The position numbers and the translations under genes were made by a program. The notes beneath the pieces were generated by a model. The model saw nothing but the letters and a program-made list of their open reading frames with translations, did not search any database and was not told where the DNA came from. Positions 24,133 to 34,960 of a DNA stretch of 64,000 nt are shown piece after piece. The stretch spans positions 14,118 to 78,117 of the forward strand of contig CBDBHB010000005.1 of NCBI GenBank assembly GCA_965205505.1. The letters are read 5' to 3'. The DNA is from Acidobacteriota bacterium (lineage in GTDB: Bacteria > Acidobacteriota > UBA890 > WLXD01). How positions within the stretch are numbered: position 1 is the first letter of the stretch; each line of letters opens with the position of its first letter.

Positions 24133-24164
24133 TTGACAGAGGAGACATTTGTCTGGTTTAGTGT
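24133..24164 (+). promoter_or_regulatory. lexA promoter with candidate operator AGACATTTGTCT (24143-24154)
   Basis: Perfect TTGACA at 24133-24138; palindrome lies in the -35/-10 spacer. Confidence 0.8.
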
Positions 24165-24193
24165 AGTGCTCGCCCACCAACAAGGAGCCCTAC

Positions 24194-24895
24194 ATGACGC
24201 CCAAGACCCCTCCGGGGCAGACACGAGAGCGCGTTTACCGCTTCGTTCGTGACCGGTTGCTGGCCGGCAACCCACCGACGATCCGCGAAGTTCAAGCGGC
24301 CTTCGGCTTCAAGGCGGTGGAGTCGGCTCGTGCCCATCTCAATACCCTGGTGCAGATGGGGCAGCTGATTAAGGCGAGGGGTAAGGCGCGCGGCTATCGC
24401 CTTCCCGACTCGCCGGCTCACGACGAACCCCCGGTGCAGGTGCCGCTGCTGGGGCGCGTTCCCGCCGGCCCGCTGAGCGAGGCGATCGAAGACATCGAGT
24501 CGTATCTGCCGGTGCGCCCGAAGTTTCGCGGCGTCGAGCTGTTCGCATTGCGTGTCGAGGGCGACTCGATGCGTGACGCCGGCATCCTCGACGGCGACGT
24601 AGTGATCGTGCAGCGCCAGCCGACCGCCGACCCGGGCGACATCGTGGTGGCGATGGTCGGCGACGAAGCCACCGTCAAGACTCTCTATGTCGAGGGTCGG
24701 CGCGTCGAACTGCGACCGCAGAACCCGGAGTATGCGCCGATCGTTCCCGACCCGGCAGAGCTCCGTGTGCTGGGCAAGGTGCTCGAGGTGCGGCGCCACT
24801 TCGACGAGAACCCCTTCCGGGCCGCGCTGGCGCGGCGTCACGCCCAGGCTTCTACTAGCGAAAATGCTTCTAGTGGACACGGCGCGCGTGCATGA
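24194..24895 (+). CDS. lexA: LexA repressor
   Basis: wHTH PPTIREV; GRVPAGP cleavage site; GDSM Ser and ATVK Lys catalytic dyad. Confidence 0.95.
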   Translation: MTPKTPPGQTRERVYRFVRDRLLAGNPPTIREVQAAFGFKAVESARAHLNTLVQMGQLIKARGKARGYRLPDSPAHDEPPVQVPLLGRVPAGPLSEAIEDIESYLPVRPKFRGVELFALRVEGDSMRDAGILDGDVVIVQRQPTADPGDIVVAMVGDEATVKTLYVEGRRVELRPQNPEYAPIVPDPAELRVLGKVLEVRRHFDENPFRAALARRHAQASTSENASSGHGARA

Positions 24896-25575
24896 CATCG
24901 ATGTCCGCGCAGATTTTGCCTGTCCCGCCCGGTGTTGTACGTGCCGTTCGGCTCGGCGCCGGCGCCTCCATTGCGCCGGCTCCGGCAAGCTGGAGCTTGC
25001 AGGAGCTGCGCGGGCGCCTGGTGGAGATCTCCGGCGTAGGCAATAGCGCCTGCCTCACTCTCGCCTTCTCCGTCGTGCTCGATGCCCAGCATCAGCACGA
25101 GACGGTCGCCTGGGTAACCCGTACCGAGAGCTGCTTTTTCCCCCTCGACGCCTGGGCCAGCGGCGCCGATTTGCAGGCCTTGGCGGTAATCCGTCTTCCC
25201 GGCGATCGGGCGATCATACGCGCTACTGATCGACTGGCACGCTCCGGCGGATTCGGTTTGATCGTCTTCGATCTCGGCTCCGGCAGCGACAAAGCCACCG
25301 CTCTGGGCCGAGCCCCCTTACCCCGAATATCGTCTGCCATGCTGGCACGCCTGCGCAGCCTCGCCCACCGACACGACATGGCAGTGTTGTGCCTGACGCG
25401 CAAAAAGACCCATGCCTCATCGCTCGGCTCCATGGTTTCACTGCGCGCCGAGGCCCGTCGCGACCGCCTCGAGGCCGACCGCTTCACCTGTACGGTGAAC
25501 GTCCTCAAGGACAAGCAACGCGGCGCCGTCTGGAGACATGACGAAGTGCTGCGCGGTCCCGACGGCCTGCAATGA
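24892..25575 (+). CDS. imuA: ImuA (RecA-like, degenerate Walker A)
   Basis: GRLVEISG, RSGGFGLIVFDLG, SSLGSMVSLR; lies between lexA and imuB. Confidence 0.85.
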   Translation: MTSMSAQILPVPPGVVRAVRLGAGASIAPAPASWSLQELRGRLVEISGVGNSACLTLAFSVVLDAQHQHETVAWVTRTESCFFPLDAWASGADLQALAVIRLPGDRAIIRATDRLARSGGFGLIVFDLGSGSDKATALGRAPLPRISSAMLARLRSLAHRHDMAVLCLTRKKTHASSLGSMVSLRAEARRDRLEADRFTCTVNVLKDKQRGAVWRHDEVLRGPDGLQ

Positions 25576-25578
25576 GCA

Positions 25579-27417
25579 ATGACTCGATCGCACCGCGAAG
25601 CACCGTTGTCGCCGCGTGCCGAGCGCTTTTACCAAGCGCTAACCGGAGCCCCGCCGCGACTGGTCTCACTACAAAGCGACTCACTACGAACCGACTGGAA
25701 CGCACACAGCAAGGCTGAAAAAACGGGCCCCAGGGAGGGAGGCACCCCCCACGAGGAGAGGGCACTCGACGCCCTCTCCTCTCGCAGTGGGAGTGGTTCA
25801 GATGCAAAGCGGCACGATAAAGCCGACGCCCTCCCCTCTCGCGGCGGGAGCGCGTCAGATACAAAGCAGCGTGATGAAGGCGACCATTGGGGGTCGTCGA
25901 AGAACGCTAACGCAGTAGATGATGTGCTCCCGCCGCGAGAGTGGGGGTGTGTGGATGTGCCGGCGCTGCCCCTTCAGCTCTTGGCTCAACGACATCCGGA
26001 ATGGGTTGATCGACCCATGGCCGTGGTGGCCGAGGATCGTCCACAGGGGCTGATCCTGTGGGTCAACGAGCGTGCCTATCGAGCTCGTGTATTATCAGGG
26101 TTGCGCTACGCGGCGGGGCTGTCGATTTGCCGTGAGCTGTGCGCCGGAGAGGTGCCGCAGGAAGAAGTCGACACCGGTGTAGAGCGCTTGATCAAGCTGC
26201 TGCGCACGTTCAGCCCAGGAGTTGAACCGAGCGAAGACGAGCCGGGCGTCTTCTGGATCGATGCCTCAGGGTTACTCGGGCTGGAACGCTCGCTCGAGAA
26301 CTGGGCCGAACGGATCCGCGAGACACTGTGGAAGCACCACTTCGTAGCTCACGTCGCGGTGGGGTTCTCACGCTTCGGCGTTTACACGTTGGCGCGCTGT
26401 GCTCGCGGCAGCGTGGTTTTCGAAACTCCTGAACACGAGCACCGTGCAATGCGAAATGTGCGACTCGATCGCCTGCACCTGGACGCCAAGCTCCGGGACA
26501 AACTCGCCAAGCTCAGCGTACATACCGTGGGCAGTTTTCTCGGCCTCCCCGTCGATGGCCTAGCGCGCCGCTTCGGGCCCGACGCGTTGCACCTGCATCG
26601 ACTCGCCTCCGGCTCCCTTGCCACACCGCTGGATCCGGTGCCATACGACAAGCCGATCGATGCATGGATCGAGCTCGAGCATCCCGAGACCGATGCCCTG
26701 CGGCTGACCTTTATCATCAAACGCGTGCTGCCCGCGCTGCTTCACCGCGCTGCCGCATATGGACATGGGTTGTCGGCGCTGAACATCGATTTGCTTCTCG
26801 ACAACACCCGCCACGACGAAGTCGCCGTGCGCACCGCGGAGCCGACTCTCGACGCCGCGCAAATCCTCGACCTGGTGCGTCTCAAGCTCGACACACTGGA
26901 GCTTTCAGCTGGCGCGGTGGAGATCCGTCTCAACGTCGACTCGACACCCACCGGCAAAGAGCAGCTCGGGTTGTTCTCGGAAAAGCCGCAACGCGATCTT
27001 GCCGCTGCCAACCGCGCGTTTGCTCGGCTACGCGCCGAGTTCGGGCGCCTTTCAGTGGTATGGCCGCGGCTGCATCGTGCCCACCTGCCAGAGGCGACCT
27101 TTAGCTGGGAACCGCTCGAGGGCGCCCGAATTCCAGCACCTCGCAACGCACGACAGCGGCCGCTCATGCGACGCATCTTCGACCGTGCCGTTCCCTTACC
27201 CCACAGAGGCAACCACGAGCCCGACGGGTGGCTGGTACGTGGGCCCGAACAGGGTCCGATGCGGAAGATCTTCGGCCCCTACACCGTCTCCGGTGGCTGG
27301 TGGGTTCGCGAGGTACGCCGCGACTATCACTTCGTGGAAACCCAGAAGGGCGACGTGATGTGGGTGTTTTACGACCGCCACCGCCGACGATGGTTCTTGC
27401 AGGGCCAGGTGGAGTAA
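25579..27417 (+). CDS. imuB: ImuB, inactive Y-family DNA polymerase
   Basis: FSPGVEP, FWIDASGL, HLPE, GPYTVSGGWW, RDY, WFLQG. Confidence 0.9.
   Translation: MTRSHREAPLSPRAERFYQALTGAPPRLVSLQSDSLRTDWNAHSKAEKTGPREGGTPHEERALDALSSRSGSGSDAKRHDKADALPSRGGSASDTKQRDEGDHWGSSKNANAVDDVLPPREWGCVDVPALPLQLLAQRHPEWVDRPMAVVAEDRPQGLILWVNERAYRARVLSGLRYAAGLSICRELCAGEVPQEEVDTGVERLIKLLRTFSPGVEPSEDEPGVFWIDASGLLGLERSLENWAERIRETLWKHHFVAHVAVGFSRFGVYTLARCARGSVVFETPEHEHRAMRNVRLDRLHLDAKLRDKLAKLSVHTVGSFLGLPVDGLARRFGPDALHLHRLASGSLATPLDPVPYDKPIDAWIELEHPETDALRLTFIIKRVLPALLHRAAAYGHGLSALNIDLLLDNTRHDEVAVRTAEPTLDAAQILDLVRLKLDTLELSAGAVEIRLNVDSTPTGKEQLGLFSEKPQRDLAAANRAFARLRAEFGRLSVVWPRLHRAHLPEATFSWEPLEGARIPAPRNARQRPLMRRIFDRAVPLPHRGNHEPDGWLVRGPEQGPMRKIFGPYTVSGGWWVREVRRDYHFVETQKGDVMWVFYDRHRRRWFLQGQVE
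25768..25881 (+). repeat. Two imperfect 57-bp tandem repeats in the imuB 5' region
   Basis: GACGCCCTC(T/C)CCTCTCGC...TCAGAT(G/A)CAAAGC units starting at 25768 and 25825. Confidence 0.75.
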
Positions 27418-27530
27418 TGAAGTTGGTCTCTGGAGCTACTCAGCCGCCGGGCCTCGTGGCGCCAGGTGGAAGCGAAACCGGAGAGCGGCGAGGGACCATC
27501 GTGTCTGGACGGTGCCAGGCACCCAGTTGA

Positions 27531-30430
27531 CTAGCTCCCCTGCCGGCGGACCTTCTGTGCTTCGATCTCGCGCTCGCGCTCCAGCAGCGGCTTGCCGCTT
27601 GTGATCCAGTCCGGGGCATCCTCGCCCTGCAGAAAGTGTCCGAACCAGGCGAGCACGCGGTGGTGGTAGTCGATCTGGTTGTTTTTCTGTCGCGCGCTGT
27701 GGTCCTCGCCGGGATAGACCAGCATCACCAGGAACTTTCCGGCGCGACGGGCATAGTTATACATCTCCACACCCTGATGCCAATCGACCACGCCATCCTC
27801 GTCGCCGAAGAAGATCATCATCGGCGTTTCGAGGTCGGTGATATGCATGATCGGCGATTCGCGTACGTAGGCCTCCAGGTCGTCCCAGTAGGGCACCTCC
27901 ATACGCGCCTGGCCCGTCTCGAAGTGATCAGTCTCCGGCAATCCCGGATTCCAGTGCACGGTGCCGAACATCGAGAAGAAGTTGGTCAGCGGCGCACCGG
28001 CAATCGATGTCGCGAACAAGTCGGTCTGCGTGGGCACGAAGCTCGCTTCGTACCCTCCCCAGGAGTGCCCCACTAACCCGACGTGCTCGGCATCGATCAT
28101 CCCGGTGGCAATCGCTGCCTGCACCGCGGGCACGATGCACTCCACCGCCGATGTCCCCGGGCGCCGGTTTCGATACACGATGTCGGGCTGCAGCACGAAG
28201 TAGCCCTCGGCGGTGAACACCGTGGGGTTGTACGGGCTGCGCTCGGAGGGCACCGAGTAGTTGTGCACCGTCTGCGACAGCCGCTCGTATACGTACACGA
28301 TCATCGGGTAGGTCTTGCTCGGGTCATAGTCGGCCGGATAGAGGAGCACGCCCTGCAGCTCACGCCCCCAGGCGCTTTGGTACTCGACGAGCGCAGACCG
28401 ACCCCAGGCGTAGTCGCTCTGGAAGGCGTTGGTGGCAGTCAGCTGGCGCGCCGCGCCCAGGTCGAAATCGCCGACGAACACGTCCGGCGAGTCGTCGAAC
28501 CCCTGTACGACGTACGAGTAGGTGTCTGCCTCCGGCGCCTTGGCCAACCGAACCGACGTTCTTGTCGAGCCACACGAGACGGTCAGTGCCGGCGCCCGAC
28601 GCGCCCTCGTCACCGCGCCCCAAGCTGGCCACCGCAAGCCCGTACTTCTTGCTGCGCTCTCCGTACAGCTGCAGCCAGATGCGCTCGGAGCTCAGCCCGC
28701 GCTCCTGAGCATCGACAATGCCGTCGGCATCGGAGTCGACGTCGCCGCCGACGTCGATAGCTCGATGCCGCACGAGCTCCCCGGCACCCTCGGTGATCTT
28801 CTCCGCATCGCCGCCATCAGGCGCTACCGCCCAGACGTCGTATTCGTCGTACAGCAGCACCGCACGGTCGCCGGCCAACCACCCGCCGTTGCCCCACGGG
28901 GGCTGCTGGGCGCGCACTGGGGTGTCGTAGTCATGGTTGACGAACGAAACCGGCAGCGCAGCTGTCAGGTTGCGTTGCGCGTCGGTCTCGATGTCGTAGG
29001 ACCAGAAGTGGTCGTCCTTGTAGTAGAGCAGGTATCGACCAGTGGCGCTGTCGCCATAGAAGTACCCCACGTCCTCGACCACCTTGCGGCGATCGCCGCT
29101 GGCGATCTCGATCAGCCAGATGTCGTTCCAGTCGCGATCGAACATGTTGCGAAACCGGTAGGCCTGTCGATCGGTTTGGGTGGCGAAGCGCTGCCCCTCG
29201 AGCACCGTAACGGTCTCGTTCACGTCGGTGCCGAGGCGCACGAACCTGTCTTCGTCGAGACGCCACGCCGCTAGGTAGCCCGCCTGCGCGTTGCGCTCCT
29301 TGCGCAACCCGTTGCATGGGAATGACCTGTTCGTCGTCGGAGTGCCAGACCTCGACCGCCGACGGCTCGACCGGCTCGGAGTCTTCGTCGCTGTCAGCCT
29401 CATCGCTGGTGCCGGGATCCTCGTGCCACTCCTGGATGGCAACGAAGAGCATCGTTCCGTCTTCAGACCAGCTCGGCGCCTCGTGCGATGAGACGCGCAT
29501 GCCGGCGATGAAGTCGGTAGCGGTGGTCGGGTCGTACAGCAGCATGGTGTCGTCGCCGTCGAGGTCACGCCAGCCAACGATCGCGTGCGTGGGTCCGTCG
29601 AAGTCCTCGTCGTCGATCGAGCGCAGGAAAGCAAGGTCCGCGGCCGTATCGCGCCATGCAAGACCCCGGAACGTCGCGCCTGCCTCCGGTGCGGAATCGA
29701 GCACGCGCAGACTGCCCGTGGCTGCGTCGTAAAGCTGTACGCCGTTGCCCAAGCCGTCATCCGTCTCGATCGCCACCGCCAATTGGCTGCCGTCGGTCTG
29801 CCAGGCATACTCGGCGACATTACCGATGGTGAGCTCGGCGCCGCCAGCCAGCCCACGAACCACGAGGTCGGCACCGCGGCGATCGGTGTCGGACTCATCT
29901 TCGGACGAAGGCGGGTAGCGGTGCATGGCGACATACGCGCCGCCGGCGCCGAAGCCGAAGCTCGCCACTCGATCGACGATCTCCGCCTCTGCGCTGCTCA
30001 GACGCAGCAACCCAAGACTGTCTTCAATCGGCTCATCTTGTTCTTGGAGCTGCTCACGAGCAGATTCCGAGTGCCCGACGCGGTACGCCAGCCAGACAGA
30101 ATCCTCGGAGAACACCGGATCGCGACCTTCCTCGGCAACCACCAGGCTGCCAGCGTCGCTAACCGAGTAGGTACGTAGCTCGCTGGTTCCATCGACGCGC
30201 GTGATCGGCACCGCCAGCCACCCGCCATCCGGAGACAGTGGCGTGCGGGACCCGAGGCGCTCGAACCTACCATAGTCGCCTGGGCGCACCGGTTGCTTGG
30301 CTGCCGGTTGCGCACTGTCCTCCTGCGCCTGCAGGATCGCGGCACCCGGCACCAACGTCAGCGCCAGCGCGACCACGATCGGCCGGGATGATCGGGGAAG
30401 CTGCCAATGCCGCCAAGAAGTTCGTCGCAT
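27531..30430 (-). CDS. S9 prolyl oligopeptidase-family peptidase with two frameshifts (~29300, ~28550)
   Basis: Signal peptide, beta-propeller region, GHSWGG, DGVV, EDH; three consecutive ORFs in different frames. Confidence 0.85.
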
Positions 30431-30443
30431 GGGTTACTCCCGT

Positions 30444-31235
30444 CTACTCGAGTAGATCGTACGATTCGAGTTGCCAGCCGCTCCCCAGGGCGCGGCCGCG
30501 GTCATAGCTGAGCATGCGGATCTTGTAGGGGGGCTCGGCGCTGAGCCAGTAGTCACGCATGCGGCCATCGTGGAACCGTATCCGCACCACGGTGGTATCG
30601 AACTCGCCCGCGGCGAGCTCCAGTCGCGTCGCACCGAGCACACGAAACTGTGCCCAGAGCTCCTCGGGCACGACCATGTTGTTCCACGCCAGCCGGCCGA
30701 TCGATCCTGGGCCCAGCCGTAGCGCCGCCAGCGGCAGCTCCAGCACCGAGGCCTCGAACGGCCGCAGCTGGTACTCGAAGTCGTGCCGGGTCGACGCACC
30801 AGCGGCATTGCGTACCGTCGCCTGGATGCGGTTGCCGACGAAGATGAAACTCTGCCCGCCGCCCCGCGGAATCGAGAACGAGCGCCGCACCGGAGCCAGA
30901 GTGGTCGCTTCGAGGATTACGCGATCGTCGACGCCCGTACTCGAGATCGACAAGGTGATCTGTATGCGTTTCAGCCCATCCTCGGTCGACTTCACCGTCA
31001 TCGTTGCCTCGCCGTCTGCCAGCGGTACGCCCACGATCGAGTTCCAGCGTTCATAGGTGGCCCGATACGGGCGCACGAACATCGACGCCACACGGTCGTC
31101 GCCGGCGCCGATCACCACGGCGTCTTCGGGCACCGGCACGAATGAAGGCAAGCCGCTGAGGGCGACGAACAGGATGCCTACGCCGAGCGCGATCAGCGCC
31201 AGCAGCACGAGGAGGCGGATCAAGATGCGCTTCAT
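30444..31235 (-). CDS. Membrane-anchored hypothetical protein
   Basis: N-terminal TM helix, AGEFDT motif; co-oriented with the peptidase. Confidence 0.65.
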   Translation of the reverse strand: MKRILIRLLVLLALIALGVGILFVALSGLPSFVPVPEDAVVIGAGDDRVASMFVRPYRATYERWNSIVGVPLADGEATMTVKSTEDGLKRIQITLSISSTGVDDRVILEATTLAPVRRSFSIPRGGGQSFIFVGNRIQATVRNAAGASTRHDFEYQLRPFEASVLELPLAALRLGPGSIGRLAWNNMVVPEELWAQFRVLGATRLELAAGEFDTTVVRIRFHDGRMRDYWLSAEPPYKIRMLSYDRGRALGSGWQLESYDLLE

Positions 31236-31408
31236 CCGAAGATCTCGGGTGAGGTGAAGGGGTGCGGTAGAGGCACATCTTGCTACGCGATCACCGGCGA
31301 CGGTAGCTGGGTGGCGTTGCACTCGCCCGTGCACGCAATGCGTAGCCAAACGGGCCTCCACAGCACACCTCGGGCCACCGAGGCAATTCAACTTCGTAGA
31401 TCTAGATT

Positions 31409-31426
31409 AACAGACATTTGTCTGTT
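31409..31426. promoter_or_regulatory. Candidate LexA operator upstream of dnaE2
   Basis: AACAGACA-TT-TGTCTGTT; AGACATTTGTCTG identical to the lexA promoter copy. Confidence 0.8.
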
Positions 31427-31513
31427 TAAATAGGCGACTTCCTCGAGAGCCCGAAATACCAGGCTGAAGTCCTGACTTTGGCCCGGCTCACCCGAACCTC
31501 ACGGCCCGCTTCC

Positions 31514-34960
<3,447 letters not shown>

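Follow-up and report, generated by a model that had tools for sequence, protein, structure and literature searches.

The palindrome ACAGACA-WW-TGTCTGT is very probably (a chance of roughly 85%) the operator of a LexA protein encoded at the head of a lexA-imuA-imuB unit in the window (the whole analysed stretch of 64,000 nucleotides, from an Acidobacteriota bacterium), through which this LexA would control the genes of a mutasome on DNA damage. A predicted box lies in front of each transcription unit of the cassette (24141-24156 and 31409-31426; Table 1). The first-pass annotation had read a repeated 13-mer at these places as a LexA operator, a reading upheld by the conservation of the palindrome at the lexA-imuA-imuB promoter and at the detached dnaE2, and by the way in which it tracks the presence of the cassette LexA and the type of its recognition helix.

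Table 1. Features of the split cassette and its predicted operators (window coordinates)
Feature	Coordinates	Strand	Basis or remarks
Candidate -35 hexamer TTGACA, lexA-imuA-imuB promoter	24133..24138	+	read directly; 4 bases before the 13-mer
Predicted LexA box O(lexA), GGAGACATTTGTCTGG	24141..24156	.	fills the promoter spacer; AGAC-N4-GTCT core at 24143-24154
Candidate -10-like hexamer TTTAGT	24157..24162	+	18 nt after the -35; reading by eye
lexA, 233 aa, recognition helix AVESARAHL	24194..24895	+	Pfam, TIGR00498
imuA-like gene, 227 aa	24892..25575	+	weak RecA-like match; lies between lexA and imuB
imuB, 612 aa, Y-family polymerase-like	25579..27417	+	Pfam IMS
Three intervening genes (S9 peptidase, unknown ORF, DUF3108)	27531..31391	-	split the cassette; outside the regulon
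Candidate -35-like hexamer TAGATT, dnaE2 promoter	31403..31408	+	reading by eye
Predicted LexA box O(dnaE2), AACAGACATTTGTCTGTT	31409..31426	.	perfect 18-bp palindrome; best genome score, 33.3
Candidate -10-like hexamer TTAAAT	31426..31431	+	overlaps the last base of the box; reading by eye
dnaE2 (imuC), error-prone DNA polymerase, 1148 aa	31514..34960	+	NF004225, Pfam

The lexA gene is the first of the cassette operon, its stop codon being overlapped by the ATG of imuA (ATGA). Its product scores 160.3 bits against TIGR00498 (cut-off 110.95), 107.6 against PF00717 (Peptidase_S24; cut-off 23.3) and 28.6 against PF01726 (LexA_DNA_bind; cut-off 23.7), and aligns to E. coli LexA structures (E 5e-29) with conservation of the Ala-Gly site, GDSM and VK; the segments GRVPAGPL, VEGDSMRD and EATVKTLY match the corresponding segments of E. 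coli LexA. The recognition helix AVESARAHL, quoted in the first-pass annotation, is present in the translation. ImuB matches Pfam IMS at 34.1 bits (cut-off 23.2). The gene between them is weakly assigned as imuA, from a RecA-like match under the cut-off (26.2 bits; cut-off 27) and from synteny, the same gene order being found in relatives, where imuA orthologues follow lexA and imuB follows imuA; an NCBIfam search at 1e-5 gave no ImuA match. DnaE2 scores 1301.1 bits on NF004225, 'error-prone DNA polymerase' (cut-off 939), and 646.9 bits on the DnaE1 model NF004226, under the cut-off of 1002; its Pfam domains are PHP, DNA_pol3_alpha, finger, HHH_6 and OB. These identities, from Pfam and NCBIfam, bear out the earlier description of the cassette as split, with dnaE2 7.3 kb away; in the window's family the lexA and dnaE2 starts are between 3.6 and 19 kb apart, depending on the genome.

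The predicted lexA box has a position suited to autoregulation, with TTGACA on one side and a T-rich -10-like hexamer on the other. The perfect TTGACA just before the 13-mer had been pointed out earlier and was read at the same place; in the lexA promoters of orthologues, TTGACR or TTGCAA stands at an equal offset from the box, and in all of them the box is followed at once by a T-rich hexamer (TTTAGT, TTTTAT or TTTACT). At dnaE2, orthologues in the window's family have TTGCTA, TGGATT, TGGATA or TTCCAT immediately before the box, and TTAAAT, TTAGAT or TTTAAT at the -10 offset. The -35 and -10 elements assigned to both genes are candidates, read by eye. A consensus promoter scanner found no sigma-70 promoter and no terminator in the lexA region or in the dnaE2 region, and its silence at lexA is explained by a -10 candidate that lacks an A at position 2.

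By exact search of the whole window, AGACATTTGTCTG occurs at 24143-24155 and 31412-31424, both on the + strand, and nowhere else, in agreement with the earlier count. With up to two mismatches there are three matches, the third being the second site read on the reverse strand, whereas shuffled windows gave a mean of 0.66 such matches and reached three in 2 of 100 shuffles. The longer palindrome previously claimed at dnaE2, AACAGACA-TT-TGTCTGTT, was found at 31409-31426. Within the whole genome of 5,980,488 bases the exact 12-mer core AGACATTTGTCT is present at the two window sites only, and the 16-mer ACAGACAWWTGTCTGT with up to two mismatches has four sites, versus none for the reversed control, in a scan that omits the lexA box since GGAGACATTTGTCTGG is beyond its mismatch limit. 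A position-weight-matrix scan of the genome placed the dnaE2 box first and the lexA box second (29.3). The site C9:2230735, which has no gene start nearby, was taken as a chance occurrence. Half-sites AGAC and GTCT, at which the information in the matrix peaks, are separated by four bases, so that the core AGAC-ATTT-GTCT consists of two tetranucleotides around four mostly A/T bases. The 'short-spacer operator' of the first-pass annotation proved to be an artefact of parsing, since the AGAC-N4-GTCT reading yields an ordinary palindrome of 14-16 bp with the same layout as GAAC-N4-GTTC and GTAC-N4-GTGC.

Comparison of the regions upstream of orthologous lexA and dnaE2 genes, a check proposed with the first-pass annotation, found the motif retained at lexA and, in the window's family, at dnaE2. 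At each of 19 orthologous lexA loci from across the order the box has the same place in the promoter (58-100% protein identity; one core mismatch in two of the boxes), a count that, like others of its kind, overstates support, as related genomes are not independent. In the window's family, dnaE2 is preceded by the perfect core ACAGACATTTGTCTG at 10 of 10 loci, with a mean column conservation of 0.96 in the box and 0.48 and 0.56 in the flanks. In the sister family of the same order, dnaE2 comes directly after imuB in the seven loci that could be read, and no separate box precedes it; the presence of the extra box thus coincides exactly with a separate dnaE2 promoter. In one genome (G005) imuB and dnaE2 are still neighbours, with the operator already in place between them. 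Sites matching the 16-mer number 1-8 per genome in the window's family and 0-2 in the sister family; outside the order, 12 of 15 sampled genomes have none and three have one, which is not above their controls. The sequence TTGACATAACAGACAAATGTCTGTTATTCT is present in a cultured acidobacterium of a family with complete genomes.

The closest non-acidobacterial matches to the LexA are metagenome-assembled genomes labelled Desulfobacterales or Deltaproteobacteria (62%), followed by Latescibacterota (48%) and then Xanthomonadales (40-45%). The possibility that homologues from Planctomycetota, Xanthomonadales and the majority of Latescibacterota loci have the box too was considered and rejected: in 71 of 80 loci the ACA-WW-TGT core was not seen upstream, and no imuA adjoins the lexA loci of these three groups (most of them, in the case of Latescibacterota).

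A third conserved target is a radical-SAM gene of PA0069/SplB type, filed by NCBIfam under the PA0069 family, in which the box overlaps the -10 element. Every one of the seven genomes of the window's family in which the gene was found has the box there (8 distinct loci), and none of the 9 orthologues outside the family is preceded by it; the copy in the window's genome is truncated after residue 168. A VOC-type gene carries the box in a sister genus. A genome scan for the motif at recA and uvrA, also proposed earlier, found no box there, nor at dinB, and no convincing box of AGAC or GAAC type was seen before the single recA, dinB, the two uvrA genes or LexA paralogue 2. The radical-SAM target means that the LexA is not strictly dedicated to the cassette. 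The earlier phrase 'cassette-dedicated' therefore fails in the window's family (radical-SAM gene boxed in 7/7) and suits the sister family, in which 9 of 15 genomes have 1-2 sites, one of these at the cassette promoter.

Some boxes and box-like sequences reside in repeats. Among matrix matches below about 26 bits in the window's genome, six lie in a box-like repeat whose asymmetry is constant (CCAGTC...RTCTG); these sites are intergenic, score lower than the boxes and in three cases stand just past the stop codon of paralogous genes ending NWFDELKRLVPTDP. Pfam searches of the ORFs beside them returned nothing useful. A repeat of roughly 230 nt, occurring at three places in G003 and two in G007, contains perfect boxes, and Rfam, applied to the repeats carrying boxes or box-like sites, matched nothing but one unrelated tRNA. 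Such repeats would be in keeping with a palindrome that is a feature of promoter structure or of a repeat element (a mobile-element remnant or RNA hairpin) and involves no repressor, which is nevertheless extremely improbable: at lexA, dnaE2 and the radical-SAM gene conservation is confined to the 16-18 bp of the box, the offset of the box to the -10 element is fixed, the box is absent from genomes without this LexA type, and the occurrence of LexA boxes within repeat elements is compatible with LexA control.

The link between box and cassette LexA extends to the protein's recognition helix. Across 54 cassette-linked lexA loci, the half-site appears mostly to change with the helix, a rule that is not strict. 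Where the helix is x-A-V (35 loci), 29 operators are of AGAC type on both halves, four are hybrids and two are unclear; where it is S/T-P (13 loci), all 13 are (A/G)TAC and none is AGAC; the six loci with S-V helices have mixed operators. Relatives of the same clade show GTAC, ATAC and GAAC half-sites with spacing unchanged, the GTAC and ATAC boxes in members with S/T-P helices and GAAC only in G018, a genome of the same order whose LexA (42% identity, helix STNG) is preceded by CTGAACAAATGTTCAG.

The window's genome encodes three LexA-type proteins, and only the cassette LexA has the residues for self-cleavage. The earlier annotation implied that this LexA is an extra copy next to a functioning main one, a picture that finds no support here, both other paralogues lacking catalytic residues. 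The presence of three such proteins leaves some room for the box to be bound by another regulator (a non-cleavable LexA-like paralogue or an unrelated factor) while the cassette LexA binds elsewhere, and palindromes in the promoter of paralogue 1 do share the outer letters CCAGA...TCTKG, with a box-matrix score of 15.3. Paralogue 1, however, has its own conserved operator of another sequence (TACCG...CGGTA type); it is present in four genomes that lack the AGAC box (G013, G014, G018 and G024), and three box-bearing genomes (G015, G016 and G025) give only weak matches to it, at 33-35% identity. Moreover, the half-site varies with the helix of the cassette LexA, and the box is always in the promoter of that gene. 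Binding by another regulator is for these reasons considered unlikely, and the cassette LexA remains the favoured ligand.

If the cassette LexA is the repressor, a LexA dimer would sit on the -35/-10 spacer of the lexA-imuA-imuB and dnaE2 promoters and block RNA polymerase. DNA damage would give rise to RecA filaments, upon which LexA would cleave itself at its Ala-Gly bond by means of the Ser/Lys dyad, and the ImuA-ImuB-DnaE2 translesion 'mutasome' would be released together despite the 7 kb between its genes; in the window's family the same LexA would also control the PA0069/SplB-type radical-SAM repair gene. It might be objected that LexA binds the box in a circuit that no longer responds to damage, as a constitutive or differently signalled repressor, considering that recA, dinB and both uvrA genes have no box and that the loss of cleavage residues from two paralogues demonstrates that such loss occurs in the lineage. 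This is judged very unlikely, as all 22 aligned orthologues of the cassette LexA strictly retain the cleavage site, Ser and Lys, the genome has a single recA, and the genes under predicted control have translesion and photoproduct-repair functions.

An evolutionary history is suggested here tentatively, at less than even odds. Among the cassette LexA proteins of one clade, a change in the first two residues of the recognition helix, from S/T-P to A-V, may have re-aimed LexA from (A/G)TAC to AGAC, with the four hybrid operators as living intermediates; the housekeeping LexA, its catalytic Lys lost in the window's genus, would leave the mutasome LexA as the sole damage-responsive one, and the SOS response would have shrunk to error-prone synthesis and one radical-SAM repair gene. 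If this re-aiming is true, the clade offers a natural, directly testable series for LexA motif change after duplication.

LexA is the textbook example of a global repressor with a binding motif that has shifted repeatedly, and lexA duplication is a proposed driver of such shifts. The LexA2 box is GTAC-N4-GTGC and the Gram-positive (Cheo) box is CGAAC-N4-GTTCG. A LexA2 that heads a lexA2-imuA-imuB-dnaE2 cassette in Pseudomonas putida and Betaproteobacteria is said to have been described by Abella et al. in 2004 and 2007 and by Sanchez-Alberola et al. in 2015. Compared by description, the two systems are alike in having lexA first in the cassette, predicted autoregulation through a palindrome with half-sites 4 nt apart, other LexA paralogues alongside and a very small regulon. 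The present system differs in its half-site (AGAC rather than GTAC or GTGC), its lineage (Acidobacteriota) and its split cassette with a second operator, and also in that the other paralogues, not the cassette LexA, have lost the self-cleavage residues. With the Gram-positive box it shares palindromic layout, spacing and an A/T-rich centre, but half-site positions 2-3 are different (AG-AC here versus GA-AC), as is the helix (AVES versus STNG in G018). A LexA operator has been described for the same phylum, in Acidobacterium capsulatum, reportedly by Mazon et al. in 2006 (Microbiology 152:1109). It belongs to a LexA gained by lateral transfer and has the form of the alphaproteobacterial direct repeat GTTC-N7-GTTC, which resembles the palindrome neither in sequence nor in symmetry. 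The predicted control of the mutasome by LexA, and in the sister family a regulon reduced to the cassette, are as in LexA-regulated imuA-imuB-dnaE2 cassettes generally; the operator sequence is not, nor in the window's family are the split with duplicated operators and the radical-SAM target.

A passage of PMC9578287 describes two lexA regulons in P. putida. SplB-type radical-SAM genes are SOS-regulated in other phyla, according to parts of PMC8565304 and PMC3323433; the repair gene found here is similarly under predicted LexA control, but belongs to the PA0069 family and is truncated in the window's genome. Seventeen published LexA motifs are counted in a section of PMC8565304. A literature search found no description of an AGAC-N4-GTCT operator, in line with the earlier claim of a distinct operator, and older LexA-motif surveys and supplements might list it. 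The type of switch is well known, and AGAC-N4-GTCT is a new sequence form of it.

The locus adds the operator AGAC-N4-GTCT for a large, little-studied soil phylum, and the graded series of helices and operators within one clade makes the change of specificity testable. The practical value is modest: SOS regulons in metagenomes of Acidobacteriota could be annotated better. As to the biology of the family, a mutagenesis cassette can apparently be pulled apart while its co-regulation is kept: an internal operator, as between the adjacent genes of G005, would be kept while unrelated genes, 3.6 to 19 kb in all, build up between imuB and dnaE2.

The palindrome AGAC-N4-GTCT, the proposed operator of the cassette LexA, is represented in the window by two copies of the 13-mer AGACATTTGTCTG, one following a TTGACA hexamer in the lexA promoter and the other ahead of dnaE2, where it lengthens into a perfect 18-bp palindrome, AACAGACATTTGTCTGTT. 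The first-pass annotation had reported the pair, the hexamer, the palindromic extension and the lack of further copies in the window, all of which were confirmed on the sequence. The exact 12-mer core is found at these two places only in the whole 5.98-Mb assembly, with approximately 0.1 copies expected by chance on both strands (hand estimate from genome base composition). A matrix of 15 distinct lexA-promoter sites, run on the same genome, gave its top score (33.3) to the dnaE2 box, followed by the lexA box (29.3) and a site on contig 8 (27.8). A simple promoter scanner called nothing at the lexA or dnaE2 site. The "short spacer" attributed to the operator, read as AGACA-N2-TGTCT, proved to be a matter of parsing, because AGAC-N4-GTCT has the same layout as the Gram-positive LexA box (GAAC-N4-GTTC) and the LexA2 box (GTAC-N4-GTGC), although it differs from the latter sequence, which defines the LexA2 lineage.

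The cassette consists of lexA, imuA and imuB plus a detached dnaE2. Its LexA aligns with E. coli LexA structures (E 5e-29), and its Ala-Gly site, GDSM serine and VK lysine are all intact. The assignment of imuA leans on synteny because its RecA-like match is sub-threshold. The lexA stop and imuA start overlap as ATGA, which suggests translational coupling of the two genes inside an operon.

Features of the cassette and of related loci (window positions, or contigs C8 and C9 of the window's own assembly, G000; L numbers denote individual loci, G003, G004 and G007 related genomes)
Feature	Position	Description
TTGACA hexamer	24133-24138	lexA promoter
13-mer, copy 1	24143-24155	lexA promoter
lexA	24194-24895	TIGR00498 160.3 bits (cut-off 110.95); S24 and LexA DNA-binding domains
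ATGA overlap	24892-24895	lexA stop/imuA start
imuA (assigned)		227-aa RecA-like ORF, start overlaps lexA stop; sub-threshold match
imuB		612 aa, next after imuA; IMS domain
Three unrelated genes		minus strand, between imuB and dnaE2
18-bp palindrome	31409-31426	ahead of dnaE2
13-mer, copy 2	31412-31424	within the palindrome
dnaE2	31514-34960	NF004225 "error-prone DNA polymerase", 1301 bits vs 939
Radical-SAM gene	G000:C8:850078-850626 (L046 2547-3098)	truncated in its 5-kb locus: residues 1-168 of the 354-aa G004 orthologue
Paralogue 1	G000:C9:2843014-2843667 (L054 2615-3268)	217 aa; TIGR00498 96.7 bits, below cut-off
Paralogue 1 operator	C9:2842900-2842941	conserved palindrome, TACCG...CGGTA type
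Paralogue 2	G000:C9:2912533-2913177 (L057 2534-3178)	canonical type; TIGR00498 136.6 bits
~230-nt repeat	L186, L187, L190 (G007); L192, L193 (G003)	extends ~120 nt to each side of position 2002 at every locus
Six box-like sites	C9:1419049, C9:1174838, C9:2792011, C8:1092426, C9:1141146, C9:2345275	L047, L048, L050, L052, L053, L055

The cassette LexA has orthologues at 58-98% identity in the genus, the window's family, a sister family and one further family; with the window's own locus they gave 19 lexA loci, all with the box in the promoter spacer. At 18 of these it reads CAGACA-WW-TGTCTG between a TTGACR/TTGCAA hexamer and a T-rich -10-like hexamer, with one core mismatch in two (L023 and L026), and the remaining locus (genome G026) has CCGTACATTTGTACGG at the same promoter place. 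A perfect ACAGACATTTGTCTG lies 100-165 bp ahead of the dnaE2 start codon at 10/10 loci of the window's family. When dnaE2 upstream columns were compared with the box as anchor, the mean maximal column frequency in this family was 0.96 for the 18 columns of the box, 0.48 for the left flank and 0.56 for the right. At two lexA loci of a sister genus (L021 of G009 and L022 of G006), the main box is preceded at ~30 nt by a second box-like sequence that is weaker, CAGACAAAAATCTGG or CAGACAAAAAACTGG.

Separation of lexA from dnaE2 ranges from 3.6 to 19 kb in the window's family. At the seven readable loci of the sister family, dnaE2 comes immediately after the imuB stop and lacks a box (an eighth, L074, yielded no upstream sequence). 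In genome G005, imuB and dnaE2 are still adjacent and the box is already present in the gap between them, suggesting that operator and internal promoter were in place before the two genes moved apart.

Among 54 tabulated cassette-linked lexA loci, with imuA or imuB adjoining lexA wherever the contig allows, 35 encode a recognition helix starting x-A-V; of their boxes, 29 are AGAC-type in both halves, 4 are hybrids of AGAC with (A/G)TAC or GCAC, and 2 are unclear. Helices starting S/T-P (13 loci) accompany (A/G)TAC in 13/13 cases and AGAC in none, and those starting S-V (6 loci) have mixed half-sites; these counts are descriptive, without a statistical test, because the loci are mutually related. 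Among 401 genomes sampled from the phylum, 47 proved to have the cassette LexA clade (33 of 228 genera). The clade also occurs in MAGs with Desulfobacterales or Deltaproteobacteria labels and in a single Latescibacterota genome, which combines an AVQT helix with the box CCAGACATATGTCTG; overall, the operator was encountered under two or three phylum labels.

There are three LexA-type genes in the window's own genome. In paralogue 2 the catalytic Lys is replaced by Gly in 5/5 genomes of the genus, and the Ser is also lost in the own genome; both residues are kept in the sister family. An operator search for paralogue 2 found none. Paralogue 1 lacks the Ala-Gly site and catalytic Lys in the own genome; it is conserved across the order with the cleavage site missing, as are Ser and Lys in most members. 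Its own palindrome adjoins a TATACT -10 element, and the protein appears to be a repressor derived from LexA that cannot be cleaved and acts on another target. Paralogue 1 is found in four genomes without any AGAC box (G013, G014, G018 and G024), and as a query it gave weak matches only (33-35% identity) in box-bearing G015, G016 and G025. The box tracks the cassette LexA, in contrast to paralogue 1.

The regulon appears small. Searches with ACAGACAWWTGTCTGT (up to 2 mismatches, reversed pattern as control) gave 1-8 sites per genome in the window's family (control 0-2) and 0-2 in the sister family (control 0-1), where 9/15 genomes each have one or two sites, one of them at the cassette promoter; in 15 genomes from the rest of the phylum sample, 12 have none and 3 have one, those 3 having 1-3 control matches. 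In the own genome, recA, dinB and both uvrA genes lack the box. The site ranked third by the matrix, on contig 8, lies 25 nt ahead of a PA0069/SplB-type radical-SAM gene, overlapping its TATGCT -10 hexamer, and recurs in 7/7 genomes of the family having the gene (8 distinct loci); 0/9 orthologues outside the family have an upstream box. Two articles describe SplB-type radical-SAM genes as SOS-regulated in several phyla (PMC8565304, PMC3323433). A divergent ORF of 86-90 aa, assigned to no family, shares the radical-SAM operator region. In the sister genus, a two-domain VOC/glyoxalase-type gene with a weak KbpA-like match has the box in 3/3 genomes (L196 in G006, L197 in G010, L198 in G009; site at 2002), between a TTGA-type -35 and a TATAGT/TATGAT -10.

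Boxes and similar sequences were also noted in repeats. A ~230-nt repeat, in which a perfect box precedes AAGGAG and ATG, occurs amid unrelated flanks in G003 and G007; five copies were aligned (three places in G003, two in G007; L190 and L193 are near-identical across both genomes), and three more box sites at L189 and L191 appear similar. The short Arg-rich reading frame of the repeat is not conserved from copy to copy, and Rfam gave no match; the repeat is possibly a mobile or RNA element under LexA control. Six box-like sites of the own genome have a constant asymmetry, CCAGTC...RTCTG, and three of them lie ~70 nt past the stop of paralogous genes ending NWFDELKRLVPTDP, from a family of >40 copies.

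The A. capsulatum LexA box, attributed to Mazon in 2006, is said to be a direct repeat and the sole published acidobacterial one; no acidobacterial motif of the AGAC-N4-GTCT kind was found in the literature searched. PMC8565304 counts 17 LexA motifs and ties motif change to lexA duplication, and PMC3323433 places the imuA-imuB-dnaE2 cassette always under LexA, at times as its sole target. AGAC-N4-GTCT is well supported as a real operator by the comparisons made. Box position, conservation, helix covariation and catalytic residues are read as classical repression, in which LexA on the promoter spacer would occlude the promoter, RecA-stimulated self-cleavage would lift repression, and the duplicated operator would hold the detached dnaE2 in step with its accessory genes. 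The system would work like the Pseudomonas lexA2-imuA-imuB-dnaE2 cassette. The operator is a new sequence variant within a known kind of LexA system; what makes it valuable is mainly the helix-operator series and an SOS regulon that is reduced and centred on mutagenesis, in a lineage where the remaining LexA copies are, by their residues, catalytically dead.
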